Source of the DNA: Candidatus Poribacteria bacterium
GTDB taxonomy: Bacteria > Poribacteria > WGA-4E > WGA-3G
NCBI GenBank assembly: GCA_963663765.2
Contig: CAXXUA010000003.1
Coordinates: forward strand, 352,001-416,000
Direction: 5' to 3'
DNA: 64,000 nt
Positions 22,073 through 39,067 of the stretch are shown here, in pieces. Position 1 is the first letter of the stretch. Every line of letters begins with the position of its first letter. A program made the position numbers and the translations under genes. Below the pieces are notes generated by a model, which had not been told where the DNA came from, made no database searches, and was given only the letters and a program-made list of their open reading frames with translations.

Positions 22073-22102
22073 TTGACATATTTTTTGCCATTATGTTATC
22101 AT
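22073..22102 (+). promoter_or_regulatory. Sigma70-like promoter upstream of the tubulin/actin/ZorAB-like cluster
   Basis: TTGACA-18 bp-TATCAT with an extended -10 TG. Confidence 0.6.
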
Positions 22103-22229
22103 ATCATTTATAATTTACAGTTATTGTTTACACACTGAATTTAGGTTGACCTTCTTGTTGACCTTCTTGTTGATAGATCCAAAATTTATTGAAGGGCAAA
22201 GAAGACAACAATTGGATGTCGGTACTGAT

Positions 22230-23624
22230 ATGAAACATATCTATTTAGGTTTGAAAACAAGTTTTTGCTTGTTCTCCATTAGTCTATTCGTCCTATTATT
22301 ACTAACAAGTTGTAATAATGAACTGACTACTCCAGACCCACCAATAAAAGTTGAATTATCGCCTGGAGATCCTTCCGAAAAACTTCTTGCCCGTATCTAT
22401 TTTGATGCTTCAGCCTCAATGCAAGGTTTTGTCGTTCCCAACACGTCGCAATACAAAAGCATACTTCGTCCTTTAGAAAGCGTTATAACAAGTGGTTGGA
22501 GGAATGGCAAAGCAGAATTCTACCGTTTTGGAGAACAGGTTACACCAATTGATAGAGATGGTTACCTAATGGCAGACTCTGAAGATTTTTATACCGAATT
22601 AAAAACGTATATCCAAAAAATCTTTGAATATGAAGAACAATTAGTTAGTAAAAATATAAATAACGCTTCTAATAATTCAATAGATGGAGGACCATCACCT
22701 AATAAAGTCAACGATATTAGAGAAGAAGACAGCTTAGTCGTTATCGTTACAGACCTTTTTCAAGATAAGCAAGATGTAAACTTATTGGTTACTCAACTTA
22801 GAGATAAATATATTAATAAAGAAAAAAAAGGACAAGCATTAGGACTGCTTGGACTTCGCAGTGAATTTGATGGTAGAGTCTACAACTTAGGTACGTCTCC
22901 CATTCTTTATCGCAGCACACCCGGAAAGCCTGAAACATTCCGTCCATTCTATCTCCTTGTTATAGGAAGGCACGCCGATATCGCTCACTATTTTGATCGT
23001 CTAATTGCTAATGGATTCACAGATGCACAAACGTTAATCTTTTCTCAGTATTTGGTAGATTCTTTACTGTCGTTTGAGAATGCTACGATTGAACAACTAG
23101 TGAATCTAAATAGGGTGTCAATCGCTGAGAAACCAGATCCTCAAGTGAAAGAATATAGAATCACTGACAAAAACAAACCATCTCAAATTTCTGCTAAATT
23201 GAAGTTCCAGTTTCTTTCATACGTTATGCCGTTTGACTCAGAAAAATTTGAAGTTAATATTATTGCTGAATATAAACCTGATTCAAAAGGTAAAAATGAA
23301 ATTAGTTTGGATGCACAGAAGTGTTTGAAAGTGATATCAACACATTCTAAGAATGATGAGGACAATGAACTCAACGTTGGCTTCAATTTGGACTCAGGGT
23401 CTTTACCAGATGAAAGAAAGATATACTTATACGAGGTAACATTAAGTCCTGGAATTGATACATTTAAAGAACCTGATTGGTGCTCACAGTGGGATATGGA
23501 AGACGAACGCAATGGTGCAAAGACACTTAATTTGGTTAATTTCATTCGCGGTCTTTCGCAAGCAACCACTCTGATACATGAACCGATTATCGCTAAATTT
23601 CATTTCTACATTGAAAAAAGATAA
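22230..23624 (+). CDS. vWA-like lipoprotein
   Basis: Lipobox LLTSC from Met 22230; MIDAS-like YFDASASMQGF (DxSxS) and VVIVTDL. Confidence 0.65.
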   Translation: MKHIYLGLKTSFCLFSISLFVLLLLTSCNNELTTPDPPIKVELSPGDPSEKLLARIYFDASASMQGFVVPNTSQYKSILRPLESVITSGWRNGKAEFYRFGEQVTPIDRDGYLMADSEDFYTELKTYIQKIFEYEEQLVSKNINNASNNSIDGGPSPNKVNDIREEDSLVVIVTDLFQDKQDVNLLVTQLRDKYINKEKKGQALGLLGLRSEFDGRVYNLGTSPILYRSTPGKPETFRPFYLLVIGRHADIAHYFDRLIANGFTDAQTLIFSQYLVDSLLSFENATIEQLVNLNRVSIAEKPDPQVKEYRITDKNKPSQISAKLKFQFLSYVMPFDSEKFEVNIIAEYKPDSKGKNEISLDAQKCLKVISTHSKNDEDNELNVGFNLDSGSLPDERKIYLYEVTLSPGIDTFKEPDWCSQWDMEDERNGAKTLNLVNFIRGLSQATTLIHEPIIAKFHFYIEKR

Positions 23625-23640
23625 GGGAGTCGTTCAAAAA

Positions 23641-24111
23641 ATGAAACATCACGCTATTTGTATAGTTTGTATTCTTTTCCTTATTGTTATCTTTATTGTT
23701 GCGGCTTATATTTTAGAACCCATGCTTTTGTATACTTTCCAACCAAGTTTACCTAAAGATCTTACAATTGACCAATGGATGGACAGTTTTCAAACATGGG
23801 CTTATGTGTGTGTTGGAGCCGCTGTAATTGCAATTATTCTATGGTACTTATTTAGTCAGACAGTTTTCAAAACGATTCATGAAAAACCGAGTGGGAAACG
23901 TTGGTTATGGGGACTATTATTCTTTTTGCCTACATGTGCTGTTGCCATTAGTTTCTATTTTATTGAGGAAACTGAAAGTGAGCCTTTGTTAGCTTATCTA
24001 TGTTTTGTGGTGAATGGATTTCTTCTTTATTACCTGGCTACTCTTTTATTTTCTCCTACGTCAGTTAAATTTACACCACTTGGTTCAATGAAAATTCGTC
24101 GTTTTTGGTAA
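23641..24111 (+). CDS. 4-TM membrane protein
   Basis: Four hydrophobic segments; GGGAG RBS before ATG 23641. Confidence 0.75.
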   Translation: MKHHAICIVCILFLIVIFIVAAYILEPMLLYTFQPSLPKDLTIDQWMDSFQTWAYVCVGAAVIAIILWYLFSQTVFKTIHEKPSGKRWLWGLLFFLPTCAVAISFYFIEETESEPLLAYLCFVVNGFLLYYLATLLFSPTSVKFTPLGSMKIRRFW

Positions 24112-24135
24112 GGGCTTTTTTGAGGAGGAAGATTG

Positions 24136-25575
24136 ATGGGATATTATGCTATCGGTATAGGTGGGACAGGTGCGAAATGTCTTGAATCTTTGATACATCT
24201 CACCGCTGCAGGAATGATGCCTGACAATGGCGATCTTTATATGCTTTTTGTTGATCCTGACAATGCAAACGGTAGTCTTGATCGTGCTAATACAACTTTG
24301 AATCACTATAAAGCATTTAATGAAAATGATCAACTAACACAACCATATTTACTACAAACTACAATTGATTCTGCCACCAACCCCATTTTTTCACCGTTTG
24401 ATAAACAGGATGATGATAAACCTAATTTGTCTGACTTTTTCAAGTATCCAGGACTTAAGCTTGCAAAAAATAATGCTGCTGAGCTCTTTGAAGTTCTATA
24501 TAGTGAAAAAGAAAGAACTACTGAGTTGAATGAAGGTTTTCGTGGTCACCCATCAATTGGTGCCTCGGTCATGACGCAAACGGTATTGGGAGCAGACGAA
24601 CCGTGGAAAACATTTCGAGTGAAAATTCAAAAAGATCCGAATCCAAAGATTTTTTTGGCAGGATCAATTTTTGGTGGAACTGGTGCAGCGGGATTCCCTA
24701 CGATAGCAAAATTAATCAAAAGTGAATTGAAAGCAAAACCTGTAAATGAACAGATAGGCGGGGCATTACTATTACCTTATTTTACTTTTACCGATACTGG
24801 AGATAATGAAAATGAACTCAAAGCAAAAGCTGAACATTTCTTAATGAATACACAAGCGGCACTTGAGTATTATCATCTATGGAATAAAGATCTTGTCTAC
24901 AATGCCCTTTATCTCCTTGGTAACGATGCACAAATTGAAGAAGATAATTTTTCTTTGGGTGGAAAGAAGCAGCGAAATTCACAACACTTCATTGAACTCT
25001 ATGCAGCTTTAGCTGCAATCCACTTCTTCGGAGACAACCCCGCAGTAGATGATGGTGCACAGTATTTTAGATTAGATCGAGCAAACAATCCACATACGTG
25101 GAGTGACCTACCAGACGGTGAAAATGGAACAAAGATACATTCAAAACTTTGTCAGTTAACGAATTTCTCCTTTGCTTATCTGAGTACCTATAAACCGATG
25201 CTTGATGATATCAGAAATAAAAACCGCTCGGGATTTCATTCTCCATGGTATATCGATTTCTTTAAACGGAACAGGATCACGCTTAAAGATGTTAATGTAG
25301 GAAATTCACTCAAAAATGTAAAGGACTATTGTGAGGATTTTTTGGTTTGGATTGCTAACGTTCAGAATTCTCAAAAAGGTAAACCACTTAACGCAGTTGA
25401 CAGTTTCGACCTGACGAAATGCGGTAATCTTATCTCGTCAGAAGGATTAAAACCCTTGAGTCCCGCTACACTGAACAAAATTTGGGAAAAAATGTGCAGT
25501 GCTAATGGTAAGGGTGAAGGCACTGATATCGGGAAGTTTCTGAGTACCTTATATCAAAATTGTGGAACAGTTTAA
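24136..25575 (+). CDS. Divergent tubulin/FtsZ-superfamily GTPase (Tubulin_2-like)
   Basis: T1 loop AIGIGGTGAK, FVDPD, EGFRGHPSIG, signature-like GSIFGGTGAAG; GAGGAGG RBS. Confidence 0.82.
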   Translation: MGYYAIGIGGTGAKCLESLIHLTAAGMMPDNGDLYMLFVDPDNANGSLDRANTTLNHYKAFNENDQLTQPYLLQTTIDSATNPIFSPFDKQDDDKPNLSDFFKYPGLKLAKNNAAELFEVLYSEKERTTELNEGFRGHPSIGASVMTQTVLGADEPWKTFRVKIQKDPNPKIFLAGSIFGGTGAAGFPTIAKLIKSELKAKPVNEQIGGALLLPYFTFTDTGDNENELKAKAEHFLMNTQAALEYYHLWNKDLVYNALYLLGNDAQIEEDNFSLGGKKQRNSQHFIELYAALAAIHFFGDNPAVDDGAQYFRLDRANNPHTWSDLPDGENGTKIHSKLCQLTNFSFAYLSTYKPMLDDIRNKNRSGFHSPWYIDFFKRNRITLKDVNVGNSLKNVKDYCEDFLVWIANVQNSQKGKPLNAVDSFDLTKCGNLISSEGLKPLSPATLNKIWEKMCSANGKGEGTDIGKFLSTLYQNCGTV

Positions 25576-25763
25576 ACAGGCAATTACCGTTTTTGTAGGT
25601 TAGGTAGAGTGGTCCCACACTAATCGTAATGTTTAGATCCCGTAACTAACGCATAATCTGTACTTTAGATAAACGGATTACGCTAACGCAATACACTTGA
25701 ATTAAGTAGAAATTACATGATACATAACAAAGTGTTATGGTACTATTAGATAGGAGTTCTTAA

Positions 25764-28742
25764 ATGCAAACTTATCCTCTGCTTCCTCCATTAAAGGATG
25801 ATGGATTAGCCATCCTTCCCAAAAAAGGAACATGGCAAGTGGTGCCTCCTGTTGCCCTTAAAAATATCGCTGAGAACCTTAAGGTTACGAAAGTTGATGG
25901 ACAATACACTGATATTGACAGCATCCCGAGTATGTGGGCACGTCCGCTGCTTTTTCAGATAGCACTCTACGACACTAACCATCCAATGCACGACTGTGTT
26001 GTAGGTGAATGGCGCGGACTTTTGACTATGCTTGCTCTCAAGGAGCGGCGAAATTTTCCTTTGACAACGAAGTTAATTACGATTCCTTCCGCAGACGATG
26101 ACGATACACCCGAATTTCTTCGTGCATTACGCAAATTGATGCCAGAACAGACATTAGATGTAAATACAACTTGGGATAAGCTTTACCTAATTCTTTTTAA
26201 TGATGATCCAATAGGTATTACTTCTCCTACAACCCTTGTATGTACATCTATTGACTATACGGATTGTATCTCAAATGTGAGTTGGTATAATGGACAATTC
26301 CTATGCGATCCGATTAAATTTTTAAACCCAGAAGAAAAAGCAGCGGTTGCAGGTTGGCTAAATGTTTTTTTTACAACCCATATTCCTCCAGGTGATGGTC
26401 TAAAAGGAAATCTAGAAGCACAAATTCTTAATTTTACAGCTGCTTTAGGAGGAATACCTGCAGCATTACCAGCATTATCTAATAATTCTCTCAATATGAC
26501 TGTTGGTTTCTTCTCCGGAATGAATCTTCCAATAGCACCTAAAGAATACTTCACAGAAAAACTTTTCGTAATTAACCAACAGGATGCTTTCATTAAAGAA
26601 AACATTCTCTCACCTAAAGGCAGTACTAATCTTAAATTGAACGGTGTCGATGTAACACCCATTCTTCCAATCAGAAAGGAAATATTGAATGAATTCAGTG
26701 TTAACGATTTGCAAAAGCGTATTTCTTTTATTACGACACCAAATGGTATCAAGGTTGATTTACTATATCCATCCCCTGGAGATGGAAAGAATATACTTAT
26801 ATCTCAAGAGTATGTGAAGCAGAATGATGGTGATGATGAACTCTTCAAAAATCCGGAAATTATTGTAATTGAACAACCACCCGTATTGGAAGTTTGGCCG
26901 AATTTTAATACTTCAGATTGGAAAACATACTTTACCTATTTTACAAAAGCGGGGCAAAATACATTTGATGCCAAACCAATCTTGGAAAAAGATGGAGCAC
27001 TTGTTTCGTGCCTTTTGGAGGAAGACACTGAGATTGCAAAAACATCTGCTTTTCCTCAAGCAATGAACTGTACATATAAAGATCATCAGGCAATAGATTC
27101 TGAGGAAGCAGGCATTTTGCTGATTTCTCCGAAAGATGCACCTCAAGGCGTAACTACGTGGAACATTGGTATTGATTTTGGAACTAGTGGTACTACTGTT
27201 TATAAACAAGATCCTACGATAAATAAACTTGAACCAATTTCATTTGAGAATCATCTGTTCCAAATTACGAACTCCCCATCAAGAAGTCGTACTAAGGTAT
27301 ATCAACAATTTTTTTCATCTCGACTTGAGGAAACACCTTTTTTTAGCTTATTTCAGCAACATCCTAATTCGAGAAAAAAGTCGAAATCGGGTAAAAGACT
27401 TGAACCTATGCTGGATGGTCGTATCTATTTTGTTGAAGACTATAAAATAAAAGAAAATGTTGTTAGCAATCTCAAATGGTCACCCGATCCAGAAGATCGA
27501 ATTCGAACTCAGACGTTTATAGAACAAATTTGCCTTCAATGTGCTGCAGAAGCAATGCATAACGAAGTTAATTTGATAAATTGGCATTTTTCATATCCAC
27601 TTGCCTTTTCACAGAAAGATAAGGCTGCTTTCAATACTATATGCAATAATGCTACAAATGCTTGTGAGGAAAAAACAGGGATCCAAAATGGTAATGTCAA
27701 TCTTGAATCAGAGAGTATTGCCACCGCGAAGTACTTTGCTGGTAAGTTCGGTGGTTTCGCTGGTGGAGCAGTCTGTATAGACATCGGTGGAGAAACCTCT
27801 GACATCTCAATCTGGCAAGATAACACTTTGTGCTGGCAAACGTCAATCCGATTTGCAGGTCGGCATATCTTTTTAGATCTCCTAAAACACAAGCCTGAAT
27901 TTTTAAAGAGTTTTGACGTTTCTGATGCTGACATTGAAATATTAGAAGAAGTTTCCAATTCTGAGAAGTTTTATAGTCAAGCTGATACATGGATTAACGC
28001 ATGGATCAATGATTCTAAAGATAGCTTAAAAAATAAACTCGCAATCTACGGGGGTAGAATCGAAGGGATACCGTTCATTCCGCTTATTGCTCTGGGTATT
28101 TCAGGTCTATTATATTACGCAGGATTGATTATGAATTACCTTATTAAAAACAAAGACTTTAGACCGACAATGCCGAACATATACATTGGAGGTAACGGAG
28201 CTCGAATTTTGGATTGGTTAGCAAATGGGGATTTCACACCTAAGTCTGCAAACAGTAAGTATCTCAAAGAAATATTACTGTTTGCATCGGGATTTGATAA
28301 AGGGGCATTTTTTATTCTTCAGAATACACAAGAACCAAAACATGAAGCTGCGGCAGGTTTAATCAATGACAAAACACAACTCGTGATCACCACAGAAGAC
28401 TACGGTATATTGGCTGGTGAAGAATTTGAAGACTTCAGTTGGACAACTATTCTATCTGCCGAAAGTTTTGGGAAATCTCAGAGATTAGAAAATAATCTTG
28501 AACAGACAGGAGATAAACTGCTTCAGATTGAAAATCTCATAAAGATATTTAACGAAGGACTGGGTAAAGAACTCGGTCAAACAATCAATCTTGACCCAGA
28601 ATTAAAGAAGAACCTAAATAGCGATGTAAATGATTGGTTACAAGATCTTGCTATGCAACCGGACGATGGTCGGATTGTTGAACCAATTTTCATTAAGGTA
28701 ATGGGGAAACTGTTGGAACGCAAAATTAATGAATGGAACTAA
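25764..28742 (+). CDS. 992-aa protein with a C-terminal actin/Hsp70-fold (ASKHA) ATPase
   Basis: Phosphate-1 IGIDFGTSGT, FSYP, connect ESESIA, phosphate-2 CIDIGGETSDIS, FAGR, adenosine IGGNGAR; unknown ~450-aa N-terminus. Confidence 0.8.
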   Translation: MQTYPLLPPLKDDGLAILPKKGTWQVVPPVALKNIAENLKVTKVDGQYTDIDSIPSMWARPLLFQIALYDTNHPMHDCVVGEWRGLLTMLALKERRNFPLTTKLITIPSADDDDTPEFLRALRKLMPEQTLDVNTTWDKLYLILFNDDPIGITSPTTLVCTSIDYTDCISNVSWYNGQFLCDPIKFLNPEEKAAVAGWLNVFFTTHIPPGDGLKGNLEAQILNFTAALGGIPAALPALSNNSLNMTVGFFSGMNLPIAPKEYFTEKLFVINQQDAFIKENILSPKGSTNLKLNGVDVTPILPIRKEILNEFSVNDLQKRISFITTPNGIKVDLLYPSPGDGKNILISQEYVKQNDGDDELFKNPEIIVIEQPPVLEVWPNFNTSDWKTYFTYFTKAGQNTFDAKPILEKDGALVSCLLEEDTEIAKTSAFPQAMNCTYKDHQAIDSEEAGILLISPKDAPQGVTTWNIGIDFGTSGTTVYKQDPTINKLEPISFENHLFQITNSPSRSRTKVYQQFFSSRLEETPFFSLFQQHPNSRKKSKSGKRLEPMLDGRIYFVEDYKIKENVVSNLKWSPDPEDRIRTQTFIEQICLQCAAEAMHNEVNLINWHFSYPLAFSQKDKAAFNTICNNATNACEEKTGIQNGNVNLESESIATAKYFAGKFGGFAGGAVCIDIGGETSDISIWQDNTLCWQTSIRFAGRHIFLDLLKHKPEFLKSFDVSDADIEILEEVSNSEKFYSQADTWINAWINDSKDSLKNKLAIYGGRIEGIPFIPLIALGISGLLYYAGLIMNYLIKNKDFRPTMPNIYIGGNGARILDWLANGDFTPKSANSKYLKEILLFASGFDKGAFFILQNTQEPKHEAAAGLINDKTQLVITTEDYGILAGEEFEDFSWTTILSAESFGKSQRLENNLEQTGDKLLQIENLIKIFNEGLGKELGQTINLDPELKKNLNSDVNDWLQDLAMQPDDGRIVEPIFIKVMGKLLERKINEWN

Positions 28743-28760
28743 TACAATAGGCATGGCTTG

Positions 28761-29903
28761 ATGCGTTATATCAAAACCAATTCTATATATCATAGATTTT
28801 GTTCTGGAATAGTGGTTATTTTTTTGATTGTCTGTCCGTTTTTTGTGCTTGAGGCTCAAAACAATACTGACTCCGATCCGCAGGAAACATCAAAAGCACA
28901 GAATAATGACCAATCACAAAATGATACTGAATCCGATACACAGGAAACATCTAAATCTCAGAATAATGACCAATCACAAAATGATACTGAATCCGATACA
29001 CAGGAAACACCTAAATCTCAGAATAACGACCAAGTCCCGTTTGCCGATCAAGATATTACCAGTTTATTAAACGAACAAAATAGAAAATTTGCAGATCAAA
29101 CAGCATTGATGATGGTTGTTTTCATGCCTGTACTCATAATTTTGCTAATCTTTCTTATTTGGATCTTTCTAAGATATAGAACGCTTGCTCAAAAATTGGA
29201 TGATGTAAGATATAGGATAGATGGTATTACCAAAACTAACAACGATTTAAAGCAAGACTTGTCTGTTGTTAATAGACGTATGCAACCAGCTGCGAATACA
29301 TTTGATCCTAATGAATTATATCAAGCATTAACCAATGAAAGTCAAAAGAATACACAAAAGATTCTCAACCAAATCAGAACTCTTACCCCTAATTCCACGA
29401 ACAGTAGTGACGCAGTACTTACAGAGAAGAAAAAAACTTTTGAAACACATAAAACTCCTATTGTGGACGAACAAATTTCACAGGATATTGTTGAATTCTG
29501 TGCCTGTTATAATGAAGCAATAATTGAAAGACAAAAATGGTCGAATTTTGTGAGTACATATAAGCAAAACTTCAAGATTGATGTTGTAAACGCTGAAGAA
29601 CGTTTCCTAAACCCAAAAGTAGATATTGATCCTATTTTCAAAACTAGTTCAACTGGCTGTTTTTTAGCATGCTATATTGAGGATGAAAAGTTATACGTAA
29701 TTGTTCCAATTTATGATTTGGTGGTAGAACGTTCTACTTATTTTCCAGGGGCTTTTGGTGAAGTGTTTGAATGTTCTCAATTTGATGATCGAAGCAATTA
29801 TCGGATCAGTGAACTGATTCAACCTGCAATCTTTGAACCAGACGATGCAAAGGAAACATGGACACTTAAGAAAAAAGGGATATTAGATTTGTATAAAACC
29901 TAG
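28761..29903 (+). CDS. Membrane-anchored protein with a 20-aa repeat linker and a cytoplasmic C-terminal domain
   Basis: Signal peptide, 3 x 60-bp repeat (about 28860-29035), TM, coiled coil, C-terminal ...QPAIFEP...KKGIL. Confidence 0.75.
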   Translation: MRYIKTNSIYHRFCSGIVVIFLIVCPFFVLEAQNNTDSDPQETSKAQNNDQSQNDTESDTQETSKSQNNDQSQNDTESDTQETPKSQNNDQVPFADQDITSLLNEQNRKFADQTALMMVVFMPVLIILLIFLIWIFLRYRTLAQKLDDVRYRIDGITKTNNDLKQDLSVVNRRMQPAANTFDPNELYQALTNESQKNTQKILNQIRTLTPNSTNSSDAVLTEKKKTFETHKTPIVDEQISQDIVEFCACYNEAIIERQKWSNFVSTYKQNFKIDVVNAEERFLNPKVDIDPIFKTSSTGCFLACYIEDEKLYVIVPIYDLVVERSTYFPGAFGEVFECSQFDDRSNYRISELIQPAIFEPDDAKETWTLKKKGILDLYKT

Positions 29904-29978
29904 TTGAAATCAACGAATTTACAAAACTCAATTAGGGTCAAACTCACAATAGATAAATTCCAGTAATAGAAAACACTC

Positions 29979-31880
29979 ATGCCACAATTCACTATAGGTA
30001 TTATAACATTCTTGATAGGTTTCTTTTCCGTTTGGATTATCGGACTAATCAGATATTGGCGTTGGTTACGGATGGAACGGATACAAATTGAAAACTGTAA
30101 GAATATCCAACCTCTCGTTACTGCCCGACATGAACAAGATCGTGGGAACGAAGATAACGACCAGAAAGTCGATCCTGAAAACGCGTTCAGCGAATTTTGC
30201 AAGGAAAGCAGCCTTAACAGACGTTCTCCGATAGCAAAACATCTCAAAGCGATTTTCTTGGCAGGCTGGGATGAAACCCGTCTTGAAGTCAGCGAGTTAA
30301 TTAACCACACCACAGCTGACCTATTTAAATGGAACAACCTTTTTCGTTCCATGTTGGCAGTTTTTATCGTGATTGGACTATTGGGAACCCTCTTTGGACT
30401 TACCGATAGTTTAACAGATTTATCTCCAGCTTTAAAAGAGAGTACAGTGAACGATACATCCACAGCAAACAGTGAAAGGATGACTCAGGCGTTGGGGGGC
30501 CTTCTTGATAAGATGAAAGGTGCTCTTGCTCCGAGCATCAGTGGAATCTTTTTCACTATTTTGGGCGTTATTCTTTACGGTATCTATTTGCAATACGCAT
30601 GTCATCCCATTAAATCGAGTCTGGAACAATTGACACTCACCGTCTGGGTTCCTCAACTCTATCCTACCACCTCACAGAAGTTCATCGAAACGATCCAGAA
30701 AAGCGAATCTCAGATGCAAAAAGGATTTGAGACTGCAGCACAGTTTAGTGAATCAGTCCAAAAAGTGCATGGTAATATAGATGAATTCAACGAAAGTCTA
30801 ACACAAGCAAGTGCTATTACGCAACCACTATCAGATTCAGTAACACAAATCAATAAAGCAGCATCGGACATCAGCACTGCTGCTGATACGCTTAACACAG
30901 GTTTTACGGAAAAGCTTGATAAATTTTCAAAAGAATTTACATCAAGTGTTACCCAACTCACCGGTTTTCAAGATGAGATTCGCAAACTCCACAAACAATT
31001 TCAAGATGCAGCGAACCAGAAATTAGACTTACAAATGAAAAAGTTAGATGAACAGAATCAGAACATTTCAAAATTTACAGAGACTTTGGAAACAAATCTA
31101 TCTAACCTTCAAAAAAGTCTAAATGGTAGATTAGACACACTTAATGATCGGTTAGAGAACTTCGATACACCCCTTAGAGACGCGGTTGACCATATTAGCA
31201 AAACTTTTGATACACAATTAGAAACCCTAAATAATCGTTTAGAGAACTTTGATGAACCACTCCAAGAAGCAGCAAACCAAATGAGAGGAACTTTTGCAAA
31301 TTTAGTTAGATATATGCAAAGTATTGTTGGTGATCTGCAGAAAGAAATAAGAGAACAGAATGAGAAATATAAGGAGCAACTTACAGGAGTCAAAAACCTA
31401 AATAAAAGTGTTGAAAACCTATTAATACAGTTAGATGAGAGTAGCAAAAACCAGAAAGAAGCTGTTGGTGAATTAAGCACAAATGTCGGTAGTCTGACCG
31501 CAGACATAAACAGCCTTGACAGTGCAATCAGTACCTTTACTTCAGATACGGGGTCTTTTCACCAATCAGTAGGAGCGATTAAAGGAGATATTGAAAAGTT
31601 AGCCACCGCATCACAAGAATTCGTAGAAAAAGTAGATAAAGCCGACGTTACACCTCTAACAAACAACATTGAGAGACTCAATACATCAATAAACGAAATT
31701 TCCCAGAATTCTAAAACCTTAGCGGATGCTGTCAATACACTGGGAAAGCAAAGGGGGTCATCAGGAACCGAACGGAAGCGGAAACGTCCATTTTTCAAAG
31801 GAAAATGGAATCCATTTTCTGGTAAAAAGACTTCTGGGGAGACTAACTCCGATTCTCAAAATGACAACGAAGGGAAGTGA
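29979..31880 (+). CDS. ZorA/MotA-like ion-channel subunit with a long alpha-helical tail
   Basis: N-terminal TM, MotA/TolQ/ExbB motif IGLLGTLFGL, APSISGIFFTILG TM, then about 400 aa of heptad-rich helix. Confidence 0.75.
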   Translation: MPQFTIGIITFLIGFFSVWIIGLIRYWRWLRMERIQIENCKNIQPLVTARHEQDRGNEDNDQKVDPENAFSEFCKESSLNRRSPIAKHLKAIFLAGWDETRLEVSELINHTTADLFKWNNLFRSMLAVFIVIGLLGTLFGLTDSLTDLSPALKESTVNDTSTANSERMTQALGGLLDKMKGALAPSISGIFFTILGVILYGIYLQYACHPIKSSLEQLTLTVWVPQLYPTTSQKFIETIQKSESQMQKGFETAAQFSESVQKVHGNIDEFNESLTQASAITQPLSDSVTQINKAASDISTAADTLNTGFTEKLDKFSKEFTSSVTQLTGFQDEIRKLHKQFQDAANQKLDLQMKKLDEQNQNISKFTETLETNLSNLQKSLNGRLDTLNDRLENFDTPLRDAVDHISKTFDTQLETLNNRLENFDEPLQEAANQMRGTFANLVRYMQSIVGDLQKEIREQNEKYKEQLTGVKNLNKSVENLLIQLDESSKNQKEAVGELSTNVGSLTADINSLDSAISTFTSDTGSFHQSVGAIKGDIEKLATASQEFVEKVDKADVTPLTNNIERLNTSINEISQNSKTLADAVNTLGKQRGSSGTERKRKRPFFKGKWNPFSGKKTSGETNSDSQNDNEGK

Positions 31881-31926
31881 CATAGTCCATTCTAATATAG
31901 ACATTGCTTAAAAAGGAACTTTCAAT

Positions 31927-32523
31927 ATGCCGTATTTATTATCAAACTTACGTTATTTAGTAATTGCGCTACTACCTCTGCTTTTTTGGGGGTGTAGAAT
32001 GTCAACTGTGAGAGATGTTAAAGAAAAAATAAGTGAGGAAATAAAATCTCAACCAGAGCCGCAACCAGCTGAAGAATTACAATTAAACCAACCACCCCTA
32101 ATTTATATTAATTCGTTGCCTGCATTCAAATTAGCCCTTGAACAACAAAGGCAATCAATTCTTGATACAGGCACTAAAATGGAATACGCATATTTGGATT
32201 ACATAGAATCACTTACAAGTATTCTCGTTACGCTTGCGAATTATTATTCTCCAAAACAATTTGGCAATCAAACACCGCAAGCGTTTATTTCTGAGATAAT
32301 AGAATCTCGTTTCCGATGGCATTCTGCTGTTGTAGAACCACTTGGGCCAATGACAGGTGGAAAATTCGCACTATTGGAGTCTGCTGCGGCTGTAGCAGGT
32401 GATGTCGAAGAAATGATTGCAGATATGGTTTTTCACTTGTATAGAGATGATATTATCTGGGGAGATAGCCAAAACGATGAGTGGCACGATGAGTGGGTGA
32501 AGGCATGGTGTAATAGTAACTGA
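31927..32523 (+). CDS. Hypothetical lipoprotein
   Basis: Lipobox-like LFWGC; 198-aa ORF with AAGGA RBS. Confidence 0.65.
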   Translation: MPYLLSNLRYLVIALLPLLFWGCRMSTVRDVKEKISEEIKSQPEPQPAEELQLNQPPLIYINSLPAFKLALEQQRQSILDTGTKMEYAYLDYIESLTSILVTLANYYSPKQFGNQTPQAFISEIIESRFRWHSAVVEPLGPMTGGKFALLESAAAVAGDVEEMIADMVFHLYRDDIIWGDSQNDEWHDEWVKAWCNSN

Positions 32524-32626
32524 GGGGTATGCATAAATAATTGGTGGATCAACATAGATGGTGACACACGTCACATACTACTTCATGTGGATGGACACCA
32601 TTCTTAGTGCAAAAAGGACAAGATTT

Positions 32627-32711
32627 TGTAGGTCGGGTAGAGTTTGCGAAACCCGACATGCAAGCCTGGATACGAGTATGTCGGGTTTCACTGCGTTCTA
32701 CCCGACCTACG
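32627..32711. repeat. REP doublet
   Basis: GTAGGTCGGGTAGA...TCTACCCGACCTAC with an inner GAAACCCGACAT/ATGTCGGGTTTC stem. Confidence 0.8.
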
Positions 32712-32784
32712 ACATAAGCTTAAAATCAAATATATTTATGCACACACCTCATAGTAACTTTTAGTTGCCTATCAATTTAGTATT

Positions 32785-32941
32785 CAGGACTAACGCAGTT
32801 TTCATGATCCAATCAAGAATTAAGACGAAAACGATGTAATTTTCAGCATTTTTTAGGTTTCCGGCGCCAAATCAACGGTATGAATGCCTTTTGGCATTCC
32901 CCGCCTACAAAGCACGCCTACCGTTGGGTGCGTAAGTCATG
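32785..32941. mobile_element. IS701-type MITE
   Basis: CAGGACTAACGCA ... TGCGTAAGTCATG; 5-bp TSD GTATT. Confidence 0.85.
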
Positions 32942-33059
32942 GTATTTTATAGCCTCATATTGAGAGATATTGATGTCTGAGCGTTTTTGAGAAATATCAG
33001 CAATACTGAATCCGTTAGCACTTTGTGAACTCGTAATCCCTAAATAACTGATTAACATT

Positions 33060-33815
33060 ATGGAAGATAATACATTAGATTTCAACTTCTGGCCGTCCTT
33101 TTCAGACTTAATGCTGACACTTGTTTTGATCTTAGTCATTGTTGTGTTTGCGGTTATCGTTTCCTTTTCTGTAAAACCAGAACCGGTTAAGCCGCCTGAT
33201 CCTATAGGAGATGTTATTCCCTCAGAAGTAAAAGAAAACCAGATGGCGATGATAAATGCGATCTCTGCAGACTACAACGTTGAACCGAAAGAAACTGATA
33301 AAGACACCTTTCGGATCCGAATTCCCCATGATAATGGCGAATACAGTGAGATTCTTATCAAGAACGAAGCAACGCTGCAACGTTACAGTTTTAGTGACCG
33401 GATTTTGTTTAAACCAGATAGATACGCTCTCAACGAAGAAGGGAAGAAAACACTTCTGATTGTAGGTCGTCAAATTAAAAAAAATCTGCAAAACTTCAGC
33501 GAAATACAAATTCAAGGACATGCGGATCCTGACACTCCAGGTATTGAACGTTCTAATTTACATCTTGCAGCATTACGTGCAATTGAAGTATTTAGATTTC
33601 TCCAACACGAGATTAGAATAGATCCGGCAAGGCATCTCATGTCAGCTACCTCTTTCGGTGAGTATAAACCTGTTCAAAGAACAGATAAAGATAGAACATA
33701 TACCCCAGAGAAACTCAAAAGGCATAATAGAGACAAAAAATTAAAAGCCAAAAATCGTCGAATTGAAATTTTACTAATATATCCATCTGAACAAACAACC
33801 CTAACAGAGGGATAG
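33060..33815 (+). CDS. ZorB/MotB-like protein with an OmpA-type peptidoglycan-binding domain
   Basis: FWPSFSDLM (conserved channel Asp) plus TM; ILF, IQGHAD, NLHLAALRA, SFGEYKP, KNRRIEI. Confidence 0.85.
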   Translation: MEDNTLDFNFWPSFSDLMLTLVLILVIVVFAVIVSFSVKPEPVKPPDPIGDVIPSEVKENQMAMINAISADYNVEPKETDKDTFRIRIPHDNGEYSEILIKNEATLQRYSFSDRILFKPDRYALNEEGKKTLLIVGRQIKKNLQNFSEIQIQGHADPDTPGIERSNLHLAALRAIEVFRFLQHEIRIDPARHLMSATSFGEYKPVQRTDKDRTYTPEKLKRHNRDKKLKAKNRRIEILLIYPSEQTTLTEG

Positions 33816-33821
33816 TTCATT

Positions 33822-34787
33822 ATGTACATTAGATTGTTTATCGCTCTTCTCCTGGGTAGCCTCGTTATCACGCCAAATAGCATTGCGCGAGACGCACTCA
33901 GCGATGTTCGCATCGTAGAAGGCATAGTGCAGCAACGTCCACCGAATACACGGCAAACAATCGGAAAACGGTACGTTTGGAATTTCAAAGGAAAATCTTA
34001 TACGGCATTAATGACAATTGATATAGAAAAGTATAATTCCTACGATGGTAAAGAACGCTACGATATTCCAGAATTAGTTGAGGAGGGAAGAACATCAATA
34101 GGTAACCTGACACGGGAATTTCAGAATGTCTTCAAACGACATCGCGAGTGGTCTAAACAAGAACGTATTGACTTCGTTCTGAGTTTCGTCCAATCTTTAC
34201 CCTATACGCTTGACGACGTGACCACAGGTTATGATGAGTTTCGCCGCTACGCCATTGAAACTTTGATTGATGGCGGTGGTGATTGCGAAGACACCACTAT
34301 CTTGGTTGCAGCCATCCTACGCGGTTTAGGTGAGAAGACTGCACTCATTTTCACACCCGGACACATAGCACTTGGAGTCAGTGGTAACTTTACAGGCACC
34401 TCGGCCACTTACAACGGAACTAAATATTACTATTGTGAAACCACTGGTACCGGTTGGACTGTTGGGGTGATGCCCATATCTTCTGGAATAACCGTAACCA
34501 ACATCGTTCCATTAGCACCAACAAAAATAAGTCCCGCACCGAAACCTGAAATGACAACTATACCTGAACCTATCCCACGTAAACCGGCACCCGAAATAAC
34601 GACCCCGACACCACAAACACCTCCAATAAAAACAACCCCTGAAGCAACCAAACCAGACACCCAAACTGAAAGTAAATCAAAGAGTCGCCTCGGTACTGCG
34701 ATTGTTCTTATTTTTATCCTAATTGCACTTGGCATCTCTACAGTTTATTTCCTACACAAGTCCTATAAAGAACAAGATGAATTTTAA
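33822..34787 (+). CDS. Membrane-anchored transglutaminase-like Cys protein
   Basis: Signal peptide, FVQSLPY, GDCED, HIALGV, YCETT; Pro/Thr linker; C-terminal TM; starts 6 bp after the ZorB-like stop. Confidence 0.8.
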   Translation: MYIRLFIALLLGSLVITPNSIARDALSDVRIVEGIVQQRPPNTRQTIGKRYVWNFKGKSYTALMTIDIEKYNSYDGKERYDIPELVEEGRTSIGNLTREFQNVFKRHREWSKQERIDFVLSFVQSLPYTLDDVTTGYDEFRRYAIETLIDGGGDCEDTTILVAAILRGLGEKTALIFTPGHIALGVSGNFTGTSATYNGTKYYYCETTGTGWTVGVMPISSGITVTNIVPLAPTKISPAPKPEMTTIPEPIPRKPAPEITTPTPQTPPIKTTPEATKPDTQTESKSKSRLGTAIVLIFILIALGISTVYFLHKSYKEQDEF

Positions 34788-35085: not shown

Positions 35086-35330
35086 ATCGCTCTTTAGTCC
35101 CGTAGGGACGATATGTTTATAGAAAACGAATACCCCCACCAGTTCTTTAGTCCCGTAGGGACGATATGTTTTTTCTTCTATGCCGTTCCTACGGAACTCA
35201 AGAGGGGTAGATAACATTTTTCTATAAACATATCGTCCCTACCAAATCAACGCCAAATGCGCCAAATCAACGGTATGAATGCCATTAAGGCATTCCCCGT
35301 ATGGCATTTGGCGGGACTAAAGACATGGAG
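35086..35330. repeat. REP-like cluster (TAGTCCCGTAGGGACGATATG family)
   Basis: Two direct copies plus an inverted CATATCGTCCCTAC interrupted by a CCAAATCAACG module. Confidence 0.7.
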
Positions 35331-35525
35331 AAGATGGCAACACACAAAATTAACGTCATAGTAAATATTCATCAAAAATGCCTAAAACTGAAAAACCCTG
35401 ACTTTACACAGCCCATAGGTTGACTATTCGCTGTGAATGTCTTATACTTAATCAGACTGGCAATATGATAATTGTGCTTACCATAGCATTGCATTGTTAA
35501 CCACTTTTTGTATGGAGGTATCTCA

Positions 35526-35744
35526 ATGACAACACGACTTGAACAAGCTTTTACAGAAGCATCAAAGTTCTCACCGAAGGAGCAAGATGCACTGGCAGAT
35601 TGGGTGCTTGCTGAACTCCGATTTGAAAAAAAATGGGATAAATTATTCGCCAATTCTCAAAAGGTATTATCCAAATTGGCTTCTGAAGCAATTGCCGAGC
35701 ATCGTAGTGGTCAAACAAGAGAACTTAATCCAGACCAACTATGA
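35526..35744 (+). CDS. Putative antitoxin of a RelE/ParE-like TA pair
   Basis: GGAGG RBS; small helical protein whose stop overlaps the toxin ATG (ATGA). Confidence 0.65.
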   Translation: MTTRLEQAFTEASKFSPKEQDALADWVLAELRFEKKWDKLFANSQKVLSKLASEAIAEHRSGQTRELNPDQL

Positions 35745-36011
35745 ATTCAAGAACGATAAAAACGCTTCCGTCAGATGCTGACGAAATTACCAAGTAACAT
35801 TCAACAGCAGGCTAAGGAAGCATACAAACTCTTCATTGAAAATTTACACCATCCAAGTCTACGATTCAAGAAAGTCCACAATACAGATTCAATTTACTCC
35901 GTACGTATCAACATCAATTACCGAGCGGTTGGGGTTGTTGAGAATGGCGTAATTGTTTGGTTCTGGATCGGTCCACATACAGAATATGAGAAATTACTTG
36001 GCGAACTATGA
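35741..36011 (+). pseudogene. RelE/ParE-like toxin with an apparent +1 frameshift in the A-run near 35758-35762
   Basis: MNSRTIK/RFRQMLTKLP...HPSLRFKKV...SVRININYRAVG...WFWIGPHTEYEKL. Confidence 0.7.
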
Positions 36012-36078: not shown

Positions 36079-36426
36079 ATGAATATAGATATTAAACTTC
36101 AACAATGCACAGTCCCTTTTAAAGACTATCTTCTTAAAGATTTGGCACAACCCGAATTTGCGAAAGGTTATCTTGAAGCTGCACTCCAAGATTTTGATAA
36201 AGACGGCAACATTGAGATGCTATTACTTTCCATGAAAGATATTGCAGAAGCACAAGGCGGAATTGAAGAACTTGTCACATGGACAAATCTCAGTCCGCAG
36301 ACTCTCACCTCTCTGCTTAGTCCCGAGCACCCACCGCAATTGGATAAAGTGCTGGATATTCTCTCCATGTTAAAAGATTCCCTTCATACAAAGCATGTTG
36401 TTATTGATAATGATTCTACAACATAG
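36079..36426 (+). CDS. Addiction-module antidote-like HTH protein
   Basis: YLEAALQD...LLLSMKDIAEAQGGIEEL...LSPQTL pattern. Confidence 0.7.
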   Translation: MNIDIKLQQCTVPFKDYLLKDLAQPEFAKGYLEAALQDFDKDGNIEMLLLSMKDIAEAQGGIEELVTWTNLSPQTLTSLLSPEHPPQLDKVLDILSMLKDSLHTKHVVIDNDSTT

Positions 36427-36672: not shown

Positions 36673-36732
36673 ATCTGGCAAAACCGAGATTTTGAATTAC
36701 TTCATCTACAATTTTTGTTAGGATATATATTT

Positions 36733-37508
36733 ATGAAATCTCGCTCTAAAGAATTGGTTGATAGAGCAATTGCTGCAACTGTTTCAGCTATAGAAATATA
36801 CAATAAACCTGATTTTCGTTATCGCGCAGAAACCTTTTGCATCCTTGCAATCAATGGCTGGGAACTACTCTTTAAAGCTAAATAGTTAAAAGAAATTAAC
36901 AACAAAATTCATTCTCTTTATGTAAAAGTCGCTGATAGGAAACAGTATGGAACGAAAAGCAAGAAACTGAAAATAAAACGTACTCGATCGGGGAATCCAT
37001 TTACATATAGTCTTGACTATCTCGCTAAATAATTAGTTGAACAAGGACATTTGGAACATAATGCATGGGGGAATATCCAAGCATTGTTAGAACTACGGGA
37101 TTCATCTGTTCACTTCTATTATTCGTCTCGTAATTTTTCAACAAAACTGCAAGAAATAGGAACAGCAAGTTTAAGAAATTTCGTTAAACTTGTAACTGAA
37201 TGGTTTAAACGAGATTTAAGTGAGTACGACTTTTTTCTTATGCCATTATCCTTTATGGAACTTCCTACGGATACTGAAGCAATTGTGTCAAACAAAGAGG
37301 AAAAGAATTTCTTGAATTATTTAGAACATCTCAAGACCAGTGCAGATGATGCCGATTCCAAATACTCTGTTGCGATTAATGTAGAGGTAAAATTCATGCG
37401 ATCAAATACAAAAGATGCTCTTAACGTTCAGATTGTCAGTCCTGATACCCCCAACGCGTTAGGACTCCACTTAACTGAAGGACAGTTTCTTAAGGGTTAT
37501 CCTTGGAC
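36733..37508 (+). pseudogene. DUF3644-like HEPN protein, with stops and a truncated 3' end
   Basis: AIEIYNKPDFRYRAETFCILAINGWELLFKAK*; RDSSVH (Rx4H); the repeat element begins at 37509. Confidence 0.75.
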
Positions 37509-37726
37509 AATACCTTCGCCATTTTTGAGTGCTTCAGTTGAATGAGTATTTAGTGTTGATCTACCATTGCTCTGTGATATTGTTAGGATTACATAAATAA
37601 AAATAACTTCAGGTTTTCGTTGAAGTATTTTTAATTATCATAGCGTCTAATTTGACGATAGAATCTGACAGAATAATTTATATGCACAATCTGGAAGAAT
37701 GTGCTACAACTGACCACACAATCTGG
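37509..37726. repeat. Dispersed ~200-bp element, copy 2
   Basis: Homologous to 15329-15540. Confidence 0.8.
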
Positions 37727-39067
37727 ATGAAGATTAATTTATTAATCGGGTAATAAATATTTTTCAGATGGTAGGCGGGGAATGCCTAAATGGCATTCAT
37801 ACCGTTGATTTGGTGGTTTGTAAGCGCGCTCTTGGGACTTGATGTGCCAGCGCGCTTACAAAGCACGCCTGCAGTTGGGGGCGCGCTTACAAAGCACGCC
37901 TGCAGTGGGGGGCGCGCTTACAAAGCACGCCTGCAGTGGGGGGCGCGCTTACAAAGCACGCCTGCAGTGGGGGGCGCGCTTACAAAGCACGCCTGCAGTG
38001 GGGGGCGCGCTTACAAAGCACACCTGCAGTGGGGGGGCGCGCTTACAAAGCACGCCTGCAGTGGGGGGCGCGCTTACAAAGCACGCCTGCAGTGGGGGGC
38101 GCGCTTACAAAGCACGCCTGCAGTGGGGGGGCGCGCTTACAAACCACGCCTGCAGTTGGGGGCGCGCTTACAAAGCACGCCTGCAGTTGGGGGCGCGCAT
38201 ACAAAGCACGCCTGCAGTTGGGGGCGCGCTTACAAACCACGCCTGCAGTTGGGGGCGCGCTTACAAAGCACGCCTGCAGTTGGGGGCGCGCTTACAAACC
38301 ACGCCTGCAGTTGGGGGCGCGCTTACAAACCACGCCTACCATCGGGGGCGCGCTTACAAAGCACGCCTGCAGTTGGGGGCGCGCTTACAAAGCTCACCTG
38401 CAGTTGGGGGCGCGCATACAAAGCACGCCTGCAGTTGGGGGCGCGCATACAAAGCACGCCTGCAGTTGGGGGCGCGCATACAAAGCACGCCTGCAGTGGG
38501 GGGTGCGCTTACAAAGCACGCCTGCAGTTGGGGGCGCGCTTACAAACCACGCCTGCAGTTGGGGGCGCGCATACAAAGCACACCTGCAGTTGGGGGCGCG
38601 CTTACAAAGCACGCCTGCAGTTGGGGGCGCGCTTACAAACCACGCCTGCAGTTGGGGGCGCGCTTACAAACCACGCCTACCATCGGGGGCGCGCTTACAA
38701 AGCACGCCTGCAGTTGGGGGCGCGCTTACAAACCACGCCTGCAGTTGGGGGCGCGCATACAAAGCACGCCTGCAGTTGGGGGCGCGCATACAAACCACGC
38801 CTGCAGTTGGGGGCGCGCTTACAAACCACGCCTGCAGTTGGGGGCGCGCATACAAAGCACGCCTGCAGTTGGGGGCGCGCTTACAAACCACGCCTGCAGT
38901 TGGGGGCGCGCTTACAAAGCACGCCTACCATCGGGGGCGCGCTTACAAAGCACGCCTGCAGTGGGTGGCGCGCTTACAAAGCACGCCTGCAGTGGGTGGC
39001 GCGCGGACAAAGCACGCCTACCGTGGCCGGATTAGTAGAATTACCCAAAGTATTTTTTAATCTTCAT
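37727..39067. mobile_element. TIR-bounded element inserted in a REP loop, enclosing the 31-bp array
   Basis: ATGAAGATTAA...GGGTAAT / ATTACCC...TTAATCTTCAT; flanks CACAATCTGG and ACAGATTGTGCTAC rejoin into a REP hairpin. Confidence 0.65.
37850..39022 (+). repeat. Spacer-less tandem array, about 38 x 31 bp
   Basis: Unit GGGGGCGCGCTTACAAAGCACGCCTGCAGTT with a few recurrent variants. Confidence 0.95.

Follow-up and report, generated by a model that had tools for sequence, protein, structure and literature searches.

The window analysed in this study is a stretch of 64,000 nt from a Candidatus Poribacteria genome of 6.35 Mb (contig CAXXUA010000003.1, positions 352,001–416,000). Nine intact open reading frames (ORFs), g1 to g9, lie on the + strand at window positions 22230–34787 and form an operon whose host we take to be a sponge-associated bacterium. 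The operon combines a tubulin-like GTPase (g3) and an actin/Hsp70-fold ATPase (g4) with a MotA/MotB-like stator pair (g6 and g8) and with surface and membrane proteins. A first-pass annotation of this DNA had described nine co-oriented intact genes, and all of the ORFs are present on the + strand at the positions that it gave. The junctions are short or overlapping except for g7/g8. The GC content of the operon is 0.35–0.40, that of the upstream flank is about 0.43–0.45, and the bins further downstream are mixed. A sigma70-like promoter had been named as well. Two overlapping pairs of sigma-70-like hexamers (TTGACA-18-TATCAT and TTGCCA-18-TATAAT, each with 11/12 matches) are present on the + strand at 22073–22114, about 115 nt upstream of g1. 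However, promoter-like sites are as frequent in the region as in shuffled sequences (43 found, 44.3 expected). Therefore, the hexamers are weak evidence for a promoter.

The g3 gene (24133–25575, + strand) encodes an FtsZl1-type tubulin-like GTPase of 480 aa with no hydrophobic segment, which scores 39.4 bits (E 5.7e-10) on the Pfam model Tubulin_2 (PF13809), where the cut-off is 27. The residues of its T1 loop (G10, G11, G13) and T4 loop (G181, G182, T183, G184, A185, G187) are invariant among 28 homologues, and no relative was found by sequence among the chains of the PDB. The g4 gene (25764–28742, + strand) encodes a protein of 992 aa with a C-terminal actin/Hsp70-fold (ASKHA) ATPase domain, the phosphate-binding motifs of which are intact. 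The motifs D471-F-G, D673-x-G675-x-x-x-x-D680 and G810-N-G812 are all located in the C-terminal half, and D471, G473, D673, G675, D680, G810 and G812, which belong to the phosphate-1, phosphate-2 and adenosine motifs, are invariant among 58 homologues. An AlphaFold2 (AF2) model of g4 was obtained with a predicted local distance difference test (pLDDT) of 88 and a predicted template modelling score of 0.79. Foldseek matched this model best with MreB, Hsp70 nucleotide-binding domains, ParM, MamK, BeeR, EutJ and PilM, the E values being about 1e-8. At the sequence level, FtsA/MreB matches in Pfam and NCBIfam extend over about 60 residues and stay below the cut-offs, and a viral fold library gave generic Hsp70/actin matches only. 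The N-terminal part of about 460 residues is conserved, and no named family matched it. The earlier assignments of g3 as a tubulin/FtsZ-like GTPase and of g4 as a 992-aa ASKHA ATPase were thereby borne out. A kinship of g4 with SrfB, suggested by an Atlas lead (0.88), was rejected; the PF07520 model matched no protein of the genome, g4 included, nor did the family come up in the Pfam search.

The two NTPases are encoded side by side, and they are fused into one ORF of about 1700 aa in two metagenome-assembled genomes (MAGs), one of Spirochaetaceae (L094:3186-8306) and one of Syntrophomonadaceae (L095:2421-7421). The complex of g3 with residues 1–460 of g4 was predicted from user-made alignments in three runs, together with three controls. 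The interaction prediction score from aligned errors (ipSAE) was 0.79, 0.82 and 0.81 for g3:g4 (0.81 overall) and 0.00 for all three controls. The ipSAE mark is reached by 58 of 80 solved complexes and by 2 of 110 mismatched pairs, a calibration that is only rough for user alignments. The runs have at least 92% of contacts in common, and the partner pLDDT is at least 79. On the g4 side, the predicted interface is formed by residues 1–62 and 103–164, including the invariant P55 and W58; the first 55 residues are poorly ordered in the monomer model. On the g3 side, it includes residues 185–190 of the GGTGAxG loop, 214–216, 236–253 and 309–319. The first 165 or so residues of g4 are thus predicted to clasp g3. 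Because g3 has no sequence relative in the PDB, the prediction is unlikely to be the memory of a solved complex. The adjacency, the two fusions and the structure prediction give strong support to a predicted complex of g3 and g4.

Two genes precede this pair. The g1 gene (22230–23624, + strand) encodes an exported lipoprotein of 464 aa with an N-terminal alpha/beta domain, which bears a MIDAS-like DxSxS...D motif, and a C-terminal beta-sandwich region. Since an N-terminal hydrophobic segment or signal peptide and a lipobox (LTSC) are present, the lipoprotein part of its first description as a vWA-like lipoprotein stands. As for the vWA part, all of the 28 homologues aligned, which represent several phyla, keep D59 and S63 (D-A-S-A-S) and also D175, with which a V-I-V-T-D strand ends. 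The AF2 model (pLDDT 87) displays alternating strands and helices over residues 52–260 and a beta-rich C-terminal half, and the three residues follow strands of the alternating region. The nearest named Atlas clusters are vWA families, with a score of 0.79 that serves as a lead only. On the other hand, g1 has no match in Pfam, NCBIfam or PADLOC, its profile gave no vWA match in the PDB, and whole-chain Foldseek gave no vWA among the listed matches, the weak beta-sandwich ones having a template modelling score of at most 0.28. Therefore, g1 is graded as vWA-like at the level of motifs. The g2 gene (23578–24111, + strand) encodes a small membrane protein with four hydrophobic segments, as the first reading had it. 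Its true start is probably the ATG at about 23641 because its orthologues align from residue 17–29 or so.

The distribution of these genes was followed across phyla. The g4 family comprises 1522 representatives at 50% identity (E ≤ 0.001), mostly of 1050–1130 aa. A scan with one genome per species gave at least 585 pattern matches, 187 of which were confirmed by tblastn, and the best 80 were taken as loci. According to their labels, they come from Poribacteria, many Cyanobacteria, Bryobacteraceae, Terriglobia, Nitrospirae and Clostridia-labelled MAGs, and further from Chitinophagaceae, Sphingobacterium, Spirochaetaceae and Treponema. Gene profiles were built from the window proteins and iterated on the ORFs of the loci, and only loci with enough flank were counted. 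g3 stands beside g4 in 15/15 Poribacteria-type loci and in 48/50 other loci. The pair g2 and g3 is present in 15/15 and 44/48, where g2 adjoins g3, and the set g1, g2 and g3 in 14/14 and 34/43, respectively. The stator genes behave differently. All 15 Poribacteria-type loci carry g6, and so do 4 of 45 other loci; for g6 together with g8 the numbers are 15/15 and 3/45, and for g9 they are 15/15 and 0/45. The loci of other phyla with both g6 and g8 are L038 (labelled 'bacterium'), L039 (an uncultured Clostridia bacterium) and L054 (a Nitrospirae bacterium), and the Bryobacteraceae loci L080 and L089 carry g6. The conserved heart of the cassette is the four-gene core g1–g4, which recurs in Cyanobacteria, Acidobacteria, Nitrospirae, Bacteroidota and Spirochaetes, and the stator is an add-on.

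The stator itself consists of g6 and g8. The g6 product (29979–31880, + strand) is a MotA/ExbB-family channel subunit with three transmembrane segments and a coiled-coil-like tail of about 400 aa, and its closest models are ZorA, below the curated cut-offs. Residues 1–235 score 26.8 bits on MotA_ExbB, for which the cut-off is 22.9, the same model recognises 14 of 16 orthologues (E ≤ 0.01), and the second transmembrane segment bears the motif GLLGTLFG, all in agreement with the MotA-like protein with a long tail that had been noticed at first. The tail matches dozens of coiled-coil families, SMC and JetC among them. Therefore, the ZorA scores of full-length g6 are inflated, much of the score being contributed by the tail. 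When the motor domain was searched without it, ZorA models were the only defence models matched (8/16 members). The NCBIfam matches of the motor domain are to ZorA families (5, 2, 1 and 1 members) versus ExbB (1 member), all below the curated cut-offs; the motor domain of the window g6 alone matches no NCBIfam model, and 5/16 orthologues match ZorA_2 weakly. The g8 product (33060–33815, + strand) is a MotB/ZorB-like protein with one transmembrane segment, an invariant Asp16 in it (FWPSFSDLML) and a C-terminal OmpA-type peptidoglycan-binding domain (Pfam 2.8e-11, 44 bits against a cut-off of 27.2). Its N-terminal motif reads FWPSF(S/A)D(L/M/I)ML, and Asp16 is kept in 27/27, so that the MotB/OmpA-like label was correct. 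Weak matches to solved MotB-related and ZorB chains were obtained, with the MotB-related chain 8vvn_B at 3.4e-5. The match of g8 to the PADLOC ZorB1 model (2.6e-13, over full length) is a likeness and not a membership. With strong support, the nearest relative of g6/g8 is ZorAB, and the pair has retained the channel Asp, a domain for peptidoglycan binding and a long cytoplasmic tail.

The reverse search was started from the stator. A profile of the g6 motor domain was run on metagenome contigs, and it gave 167 pattern matches and 38 confirmed loci with identities down to 26%. Upstream of g6, g4 was found in 25 of the 28 loci that have at least 1.5 kb of upstream sequence, the exceptions being L114, L142 and L144, and both g3 and g4 in 17 of the 18 loci that have at least 6.5 kb. 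g8 follows g6 in 25 of 27 loci. Since the stator-first loci carry g4 upstream in such a proportion, the stator subfamily can be regarded as a dedicated partner of the core. This dedication is strongly supported, though the core often lives without the stator. The first-pass proposal had depended on whether the MotA/MotB-like genes accompany the tubulin and actin genes in other genomes, and they do so in every Poribacteria-type locus, in L038, L039 and L054, with g6 in L080 and L089, and, in the proportions just given, in the stator-first loci. Two loci from the scan deserve separate mention. A Snowella locus (L079:16026-18710) encodes a different protein of 682 aa with a GLLGT channel motif, followed by a protein of 208 aa with a weak OmpA match (5e-4); this pair may be an independently recruited stator. 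A locus of Ilyomonas, Bacteroidota (L090:13393-17755), has the core and then an Hsp70 paralogue (E 7e-81), an unknown protein of 682 aa and a protein with a NADase-translocation F5/8 type C domain, and no g5-type or stator genes come after its core.

The remaining genes of the operon are g5, g7 and g9. The g5 product (28758–29903, + strand) is a bitopic membrane protein with two hydrophobic segments, and its first description as membrane-anchored holds. An N-terminal hydrophobic segment is followed by acidic low-complexity repeats, a transmembrane segment at about 110–145 and a C-terminal domain of about 115–145 aa; the C-terminal part is cytoplasmic. In other phyla, many of the variable proteins encoded next to the core have this domain as well. 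When the last 145 or so residues of g5 were used as a profile, it found a domain of about 115 residues in 109 ORFs at 66 of 89 loci, and in 86 of the 109 ORFs it ends at most 15 residues from the C-terminus. Three to five ORFs with the shared domain occur in 14 of the 66 loci, including those of Calothrix, Anabaena and Microcystis. An iterated profile of whole g5 had grown from 27 to 104 hits by low-complexity and coiled-coil drift, and it was discarded in favour of the C-terminal-domain profile. The g7 product (31927–32523, + strand) is an exported protein of 198 aa with no Pfam family. It is accessory and occurs in four loci in total, the window and three related ones, in one of which it is split. 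It had been called a lipoprotein; the lipobox of its N-terminal hydrophobic segment (FWGC) is non-canonical. The gap of 537 nt between g7 and g8 is filled by non-coding sequence with two dispersed repeats that resemble miniature inverted-repeat transposable elements (32530–33055, no strand assigned), one of about 175–220 nt and one of about 160 nt. They have inverted repeats, break no ORF and have 68 matches elsewhere in the same genome at 73–100% identity. These elements could uncouple the transcription of g8–g9.

The last gene, g9 (33822–34787, + strand), encodes an exported LapG-like (bacterial transglutaminase-like) cysteine protease domain with a signal-like N-terminus, a Pro-rich linker and a C-terminal transmembrane anchor. 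It had been described as transglutaminase-like. The Pfam match to Transglut_core is only 0.034, and LapG-like is the better description, since g9 matches Legionella LapG at the DGGGDCED catalytic-Cys region (PDB 4fgo_A, 4.2e-5); a second LapG chain, 4u65_E, is matched at 0.064. However, only about 55 residues align, g9 is tethered by its C-terminal transmembrane segment, and no LapD/LapA-like genes were seen nearby. It is the best-conserved gene of the set (77–83% identity) and is limited to Poribacteria-type loci.

Inside the genus, the order g1-g2-g3-g4-g5-g6-g8-g9 is kept in eight other genomes, for which eight neighbourhoods were fetched. The same eight genes also follow this order in 15/15 Poribacteria-type loci, and the gene order is conserved far beyond chance. 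The occurrence is patchy; of the 36 other genomes of the genus, 11 encode g4, whereas all 24 genomes from three sister families lack it. A second, divergent copy exists in the same genome (G000:C1:1-5809, L021) and comprises g1, g2, g3 and the first 660 or so aa of g4, with 40–48% identity to the window copy; its contig is 5.8 kb long and the cassette ends at the contig end. The identities to the window are mosaic between modules, and within the genus they go down to 37% for g4 and 30% for g5. In G003, G021 and G006, g2–g5 have 30–47% identity, g1 62–71% and g6/g8 58–70%. On the other hand, G032 has 78–88% for g3–g5 but 53–62% for g1, g2, g6 and g8. Not all copies are intact. In G003 (L018), about 1.1 kb separates the two parts of g1; in G006 (L020), g4 is divided in the same way, also by about 1.1 kb, and g6 is split too. 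Insertion elements are the likely cause of the splits. The downstream glyA side of the window is common to only two of the eight fetched genomes, G032 (L013) and G021 (L019, L032), and the upstream flank was found in none of the eight within the fetched stretch. The g4 family is also present on six plasmid records, including the mobilizable plasmid Cy782204 of 47.5 kb (Gloeothece verrucosa PCC 7822) and Picosynechococcus plasmids. The cassette of Cy782204 is annotated as hypothetical proteins and a 'tubulin-like domain-containing protein'.

The closest precedent in the literature is the group of FtsZl1 operons, which were reported to contain vWA proteins, a diverged GTPase, kinases, OmpA-family proteins and unnamed lineage-specific families, with membrane remodelling as the predicted function (Makarova and Koonin 2010, PMC2875224). 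According to the available portion of PMC9871819, Tubulin_2 is the Pfam model of their FtsZ-like sequences. The window operon resembles these operons in that a Tubulin_2 protein, g3, stands with an exported protein that is vWA-like at the level of motifs, with a member of the OmpA family and with membrane proteins that are lineage-specific, and in the occurrence in Cyanobacteria and other phyla. It differs from them in its actin/Hsp70-fold partner and its MotA-type channel; neither is named in the main text of PMC2875224, where the words 'MotA' and 'Hsp70' have 0 occurrences. The window g3 is also short (480 aa) and, unlike most FtsZl1 proteins, is without their coiled-coil and helical C-terminal region. 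The diverged P-loop GTPase and kinase partners of FtsZl1 are frequent and not universal (PMC2875224), and no P-loop GTPase or Ser/Thr kinase family was matched among the nine proteins (Pfam, E up to 1; NCBIfam, E up to 0.1). The families of g2, g4, g5 and g6 may be among the unnamed A1-A2/B1-B9 of Makarova and Koonin 2010. The first-pass annotation had presented the operon as a candidate new system. Because FtsZl1-vWA-OmpA operons were outlined in 2010 (PMC2875224), the cassette is not entirely new. However, the literature examined contains neither the actin-fold partner nor its predicted clasping of the tubulin-like GTPase nor a dedicated stator of the ZorAB-like kind, and no experimental study of a cassette of tubulin-like, actin-fold and stator proteins was found in the literature searched.

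Other known systems were compared as well. The GAP1-N2 GTPase-centric conflict systems, found mainly in Firmicutes and Actinobacteria, include tubulin together with vWA or HSP70 themes (Kaur et al. 2020, PMC7159879, in the portion available). Like the window operon with g3, g4 and the motif-level vWA-like g1, they are predicted to bring tubulin-family proteins, Hsp70-type ATPases and extracellular vWA proteins together at the membrane, and the available text of PMC7159879 reads them as NTP-regulated conflict assemblies. As far as that text goes, however, those systems have GAP1, TRAFAC GTPases and FNIII-repeat proteins, none of which was found among the nine window proteins by Pfam and NCBIfam, and they keep tubulin and HSP70 in separate, non-overlapping themes, whereas these form an obligate pair in the window cassette. 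With the 5:2 motors (MotAB, ExbBD, TolQR), the stator has in common the MotA_ExbB domain, the GLLGTLFG motif, the transmembrane Asp of the B subunit and an OmpA-type wall anchor. It is unlike them in the g6 tail of about 400 aa, in that no solved A subunit was matched by sequence and in genomic partners unlike those of any characterised motor. Neither tubulin nor FtsZ is mentioned in the available parts of the paper on MotAB evolution (PMC12505986) or of the Zorya structure papers (PMC11946911, PMC11890865).

On balance, we lean towards reading the locus as a stator-equipped version of a widespread, mobile FtsZl1 envelope cassette, most likely with an envelope-linked role in conflict or surveillance. 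The core consists of the outward-facing vWA-like lipoprotein g1, the four-segment membrane protein g2, the tubulin-like GTPase g3 and the giant actin/Hsp70-fold ATPase g4. The g3:g4 pair may lie under the membrane as a GTP/ATP-driven switch or assembly, and g2 and the shared domain of g5-type proteins may tether it to the membrane. g1 would face outward as a ligand-binding sensor and report on the outside. The ion-driven, wall-anchored stator may sense or impose a mechanical change of the envelope and couple to the NTPase pair through the g6 tail. In Poribacteria, g9 is added as a membrane-tethered LapG-like periplasmic protease, which may trim an exported partner. The response would be directed at phage, other invaders or envelope damage, a housekeeping role appearing less likely. 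With modest confidence, we prefer a role in conflict or surveillance to one in membrane remodelling, since the cassette occurs patchily, in duplicate and on plasmids, its identities are mosaic and some of its copies have decayed. Two further reasons are that its nearest motor relatives are the anti-phage ZorAB and that arrays of variable receptor-like proteins accompany the core.

Several results weigh against a role in conflict or against parts of the proposed mechanism. The main weakness is that there is no recognisable effector. PADLOC finds no nuclease, TIR or pore family among g1–g5, g7 and g9, and its sole match on these proteins is a weak ZorB1 on g5 (E 0.0069); the first reading had likewise seen no nuclease effector. 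The g4 family and the cassette were absent from the phage collection searched with tblastn. The 140 ORFs in the flanks of 19 other-phylum loci encode mostly PAS, histidine-kinase, response-regulator, pentapeptide and glycosyltransferase proteins. Among the same ORFs, matches to defence models were SduA (3), MkoA (2), mad6 (2), mad8 (2) and the kinase-type PD-T4-6 (2), numbers that have no background control, and these flanks are not clearly defence islands. By sequence, neither whole g6 nor its motor-domain profile matched a solved MotA, ExbB or ZorA chain. The vWA identity of the presumed sensor g1 is supported at the level of motifs, as set out above. Finally, the direction of signalling, the link between the g6 tail and the NTPases and any polymerisation are inferred.

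The strongest competitor is a machine for membrane remodelling or envelope maintenance, in which the NTPases would shape or repair the membrane (vesicles, invaginations, damage), the stator and the vWA lipoprotein would serve as anchors, and there would be no role in conflict. Remodelling is the function predicted for FtsZl1-vWA-OmpA operons (PMC2875224). Moreover, all the partners are associated with the membrane or envelope, Pfam and PADLOC found no toxin or nuclease effector, and the flanks are not clearly defence islands. The TolQR and ExbBD relatives of the stator have envelope functions. We nevertheless hold this explanation to be rather unlikely. The cassette is scattered over 11 of 36 genomes in the genus and missing from all 24 genomes of the sister families, it is plasmid-borne, and its copies are duplicated and broken. 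Sequence identity is mosaic and drops fast inside a single genus, to as little as 37% for g4 and 30% for g5, arrays of variable proteins with the shared g5 domain follow the core, and the closest motor models are ZorA and not TolQ/ExbB. All of this is better explained by an accessory, diversifying system than by a cell-biological one.

That the operon is a true new subtype of Zorya appears improbable. In such a subtype, ZorAB would act as the primary sensor, and the effectors recruited by its tail would be the two NTPases, one tubulin-like and one of actin fold. As in Zorya, there is a MotA-family subunit with three transmembrane segments and a long tail, and a MotB-like subunit with a transmembrane Asp and a peptidoglycan-binding domain. 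The importance of the ZorA tail is reported in the available part of the Zorya structure work (PMC11946911). The ZorA/ZorB models are the best matches of the window stator in the defence library, g8 matches ZorB1 over its full length (2.6e-13), the g6 motor domain matches ZorA models only, and the stator is tightly linked to the core. The scores, however, are far from the NCBIfam cut-offs, with 37.6 bits for full-length g6 against antiphage_ZorA_1 (cut-off 190) and 21 bits for g8 against ZorB1 (cut-off 400), and the coiled-coil tail, which also matches SMC and JetC, accounts for much of what full-length g6 scores against ZorA. No ZorC, D, E, F or G match was found among the nine proteins (PADLOC, E up to 1). 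Partial ZorA/ZorB likeness without a complete type was indeed what the first-pass annotation had expected. The partners also differ from those of Zorya, being a tubulin-like GTPase, an actin-fold ATPase and surface proteins, and the stator is optional to the core. Such a motor is missing beside the core in 42 of 45 other-phylum loci; hence, the NTPases are not effectors that were added on to a motor. The proposal of a ZorAB-like motor that recruits NTPase effectors as the centre of the system therefore failed, g6 and g8 being together in just 3 of these 45 loci; it inverts the likely hierarchy, since the core occurs without the motor in most other phyla. With scores below the curated cut-offs and no ZorC–G, the operon is not Zorya; it is a stator-equipped variant of the FtsZl1 operons of Makarova and Koonin 2010.

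MotAB-type motors and an actin homologue drive the gliding of Myxococcus. An apparatus for surface-protein handling or motility in the manner of Agl-Glt gliding or LapD/LapG, where the protein moved or released by the motor and the NTPases would be the vWA lipoprotein or one of g5 type and g9 would be the releasing protease, could draw further on the resemblance of g9 to LapG near the catalytic Cys and on the exported adhesin-type domain of g1, but it is highly improbable, as g9 is found in 0/45 loci outside the Poribacteria type, Pfam finds no outer-membrane or secretion component in the operon, and no LapA/LapD-like partner was seen. Plasmid segregation by a TubZ/ParM-like system was rejected because the partners are exported or membrane proteins, the genes are mostly chromosomal and the Gloeothece plasmid carries a ParA gene.

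Beyond the stator-equipped FtsZl1 cassette preferred here, the tentative and on the whole doubtful suggestion can be made that the operon represents a new class of envelope-spanning machine, in which a tubulin-fold GTPase and an actin-fold ATPase form an obligate heteromer, which in one branch receives its mechanical drive or gating from a dedicated 5:2 ion motor anchored in the peptidoglycan. If this were true, the N-terminal domain of g4 would clasp a surface of g3 that includes residues 185–190 of the GGTG loop, so that no classical homopolymer would form. One signalling or immune device would then contain homologues of tubulin, actin and the flagellar stator, and its membrane receptors, which have a common domain, would be swappable. 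Whatever its role, one operon joins a tubulin-like NTPase, an actin-like NTPase and a MotAB-type stator, which are three of the best-known force-generating or switching modules. The family is large, occurs in many phyla and is found on plasmids of culturable cyanobacteria. The role of the cassette would answer a question open since 2010, namely what FtsZl1 systems do. Its function would also test whether ZorAB-type motors serve non-nuclease outputs, and it could reveal a new bacterial way of sensing or reshaping the envelope.

The neighbourhood of the operon had been described as containing toxin-antitoxin and HEPN genes. The former description is in line with a ParE-like toxin gene downstream of g9 (35508–36011, Pfam 2.7e-10), which is preceded by an ORF of 78 aa that is probably its antitoxin. 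An HI1420-type antidote-like gene, below the cut-off, follows at 36079–36426. The gene labelled HEPN is a broken DUF3644 gene in two pieces (36715–36885 and 37051–37545), which cover profile positions 1–44 and 88–181 with the middle missing. Next to it lies a tandem repeat at 37850–39019 with a unit of 31 bp in 37.7 copies (93% match, GC up to 0.54). The repeat yields spurious ORFs of 374–437 aa in three frames, and it is not a CRISPR array because it is without spacers. Beyond the repeat, there are glyA, a Mur ligase gene and an H+-pyrophosphatase gene, and a beta-propeller protein and an iron alcohol dehydrogenase are encoded upstream of the operon. Non-coding sequence after g9 contains two copies of the palindrome GTCCCGTAGGGAC at a distance of 53 nt (window 35097–35162). 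Further downstream, an ORF of 2825 aa is located on the - strand at window positions 50269–58746.

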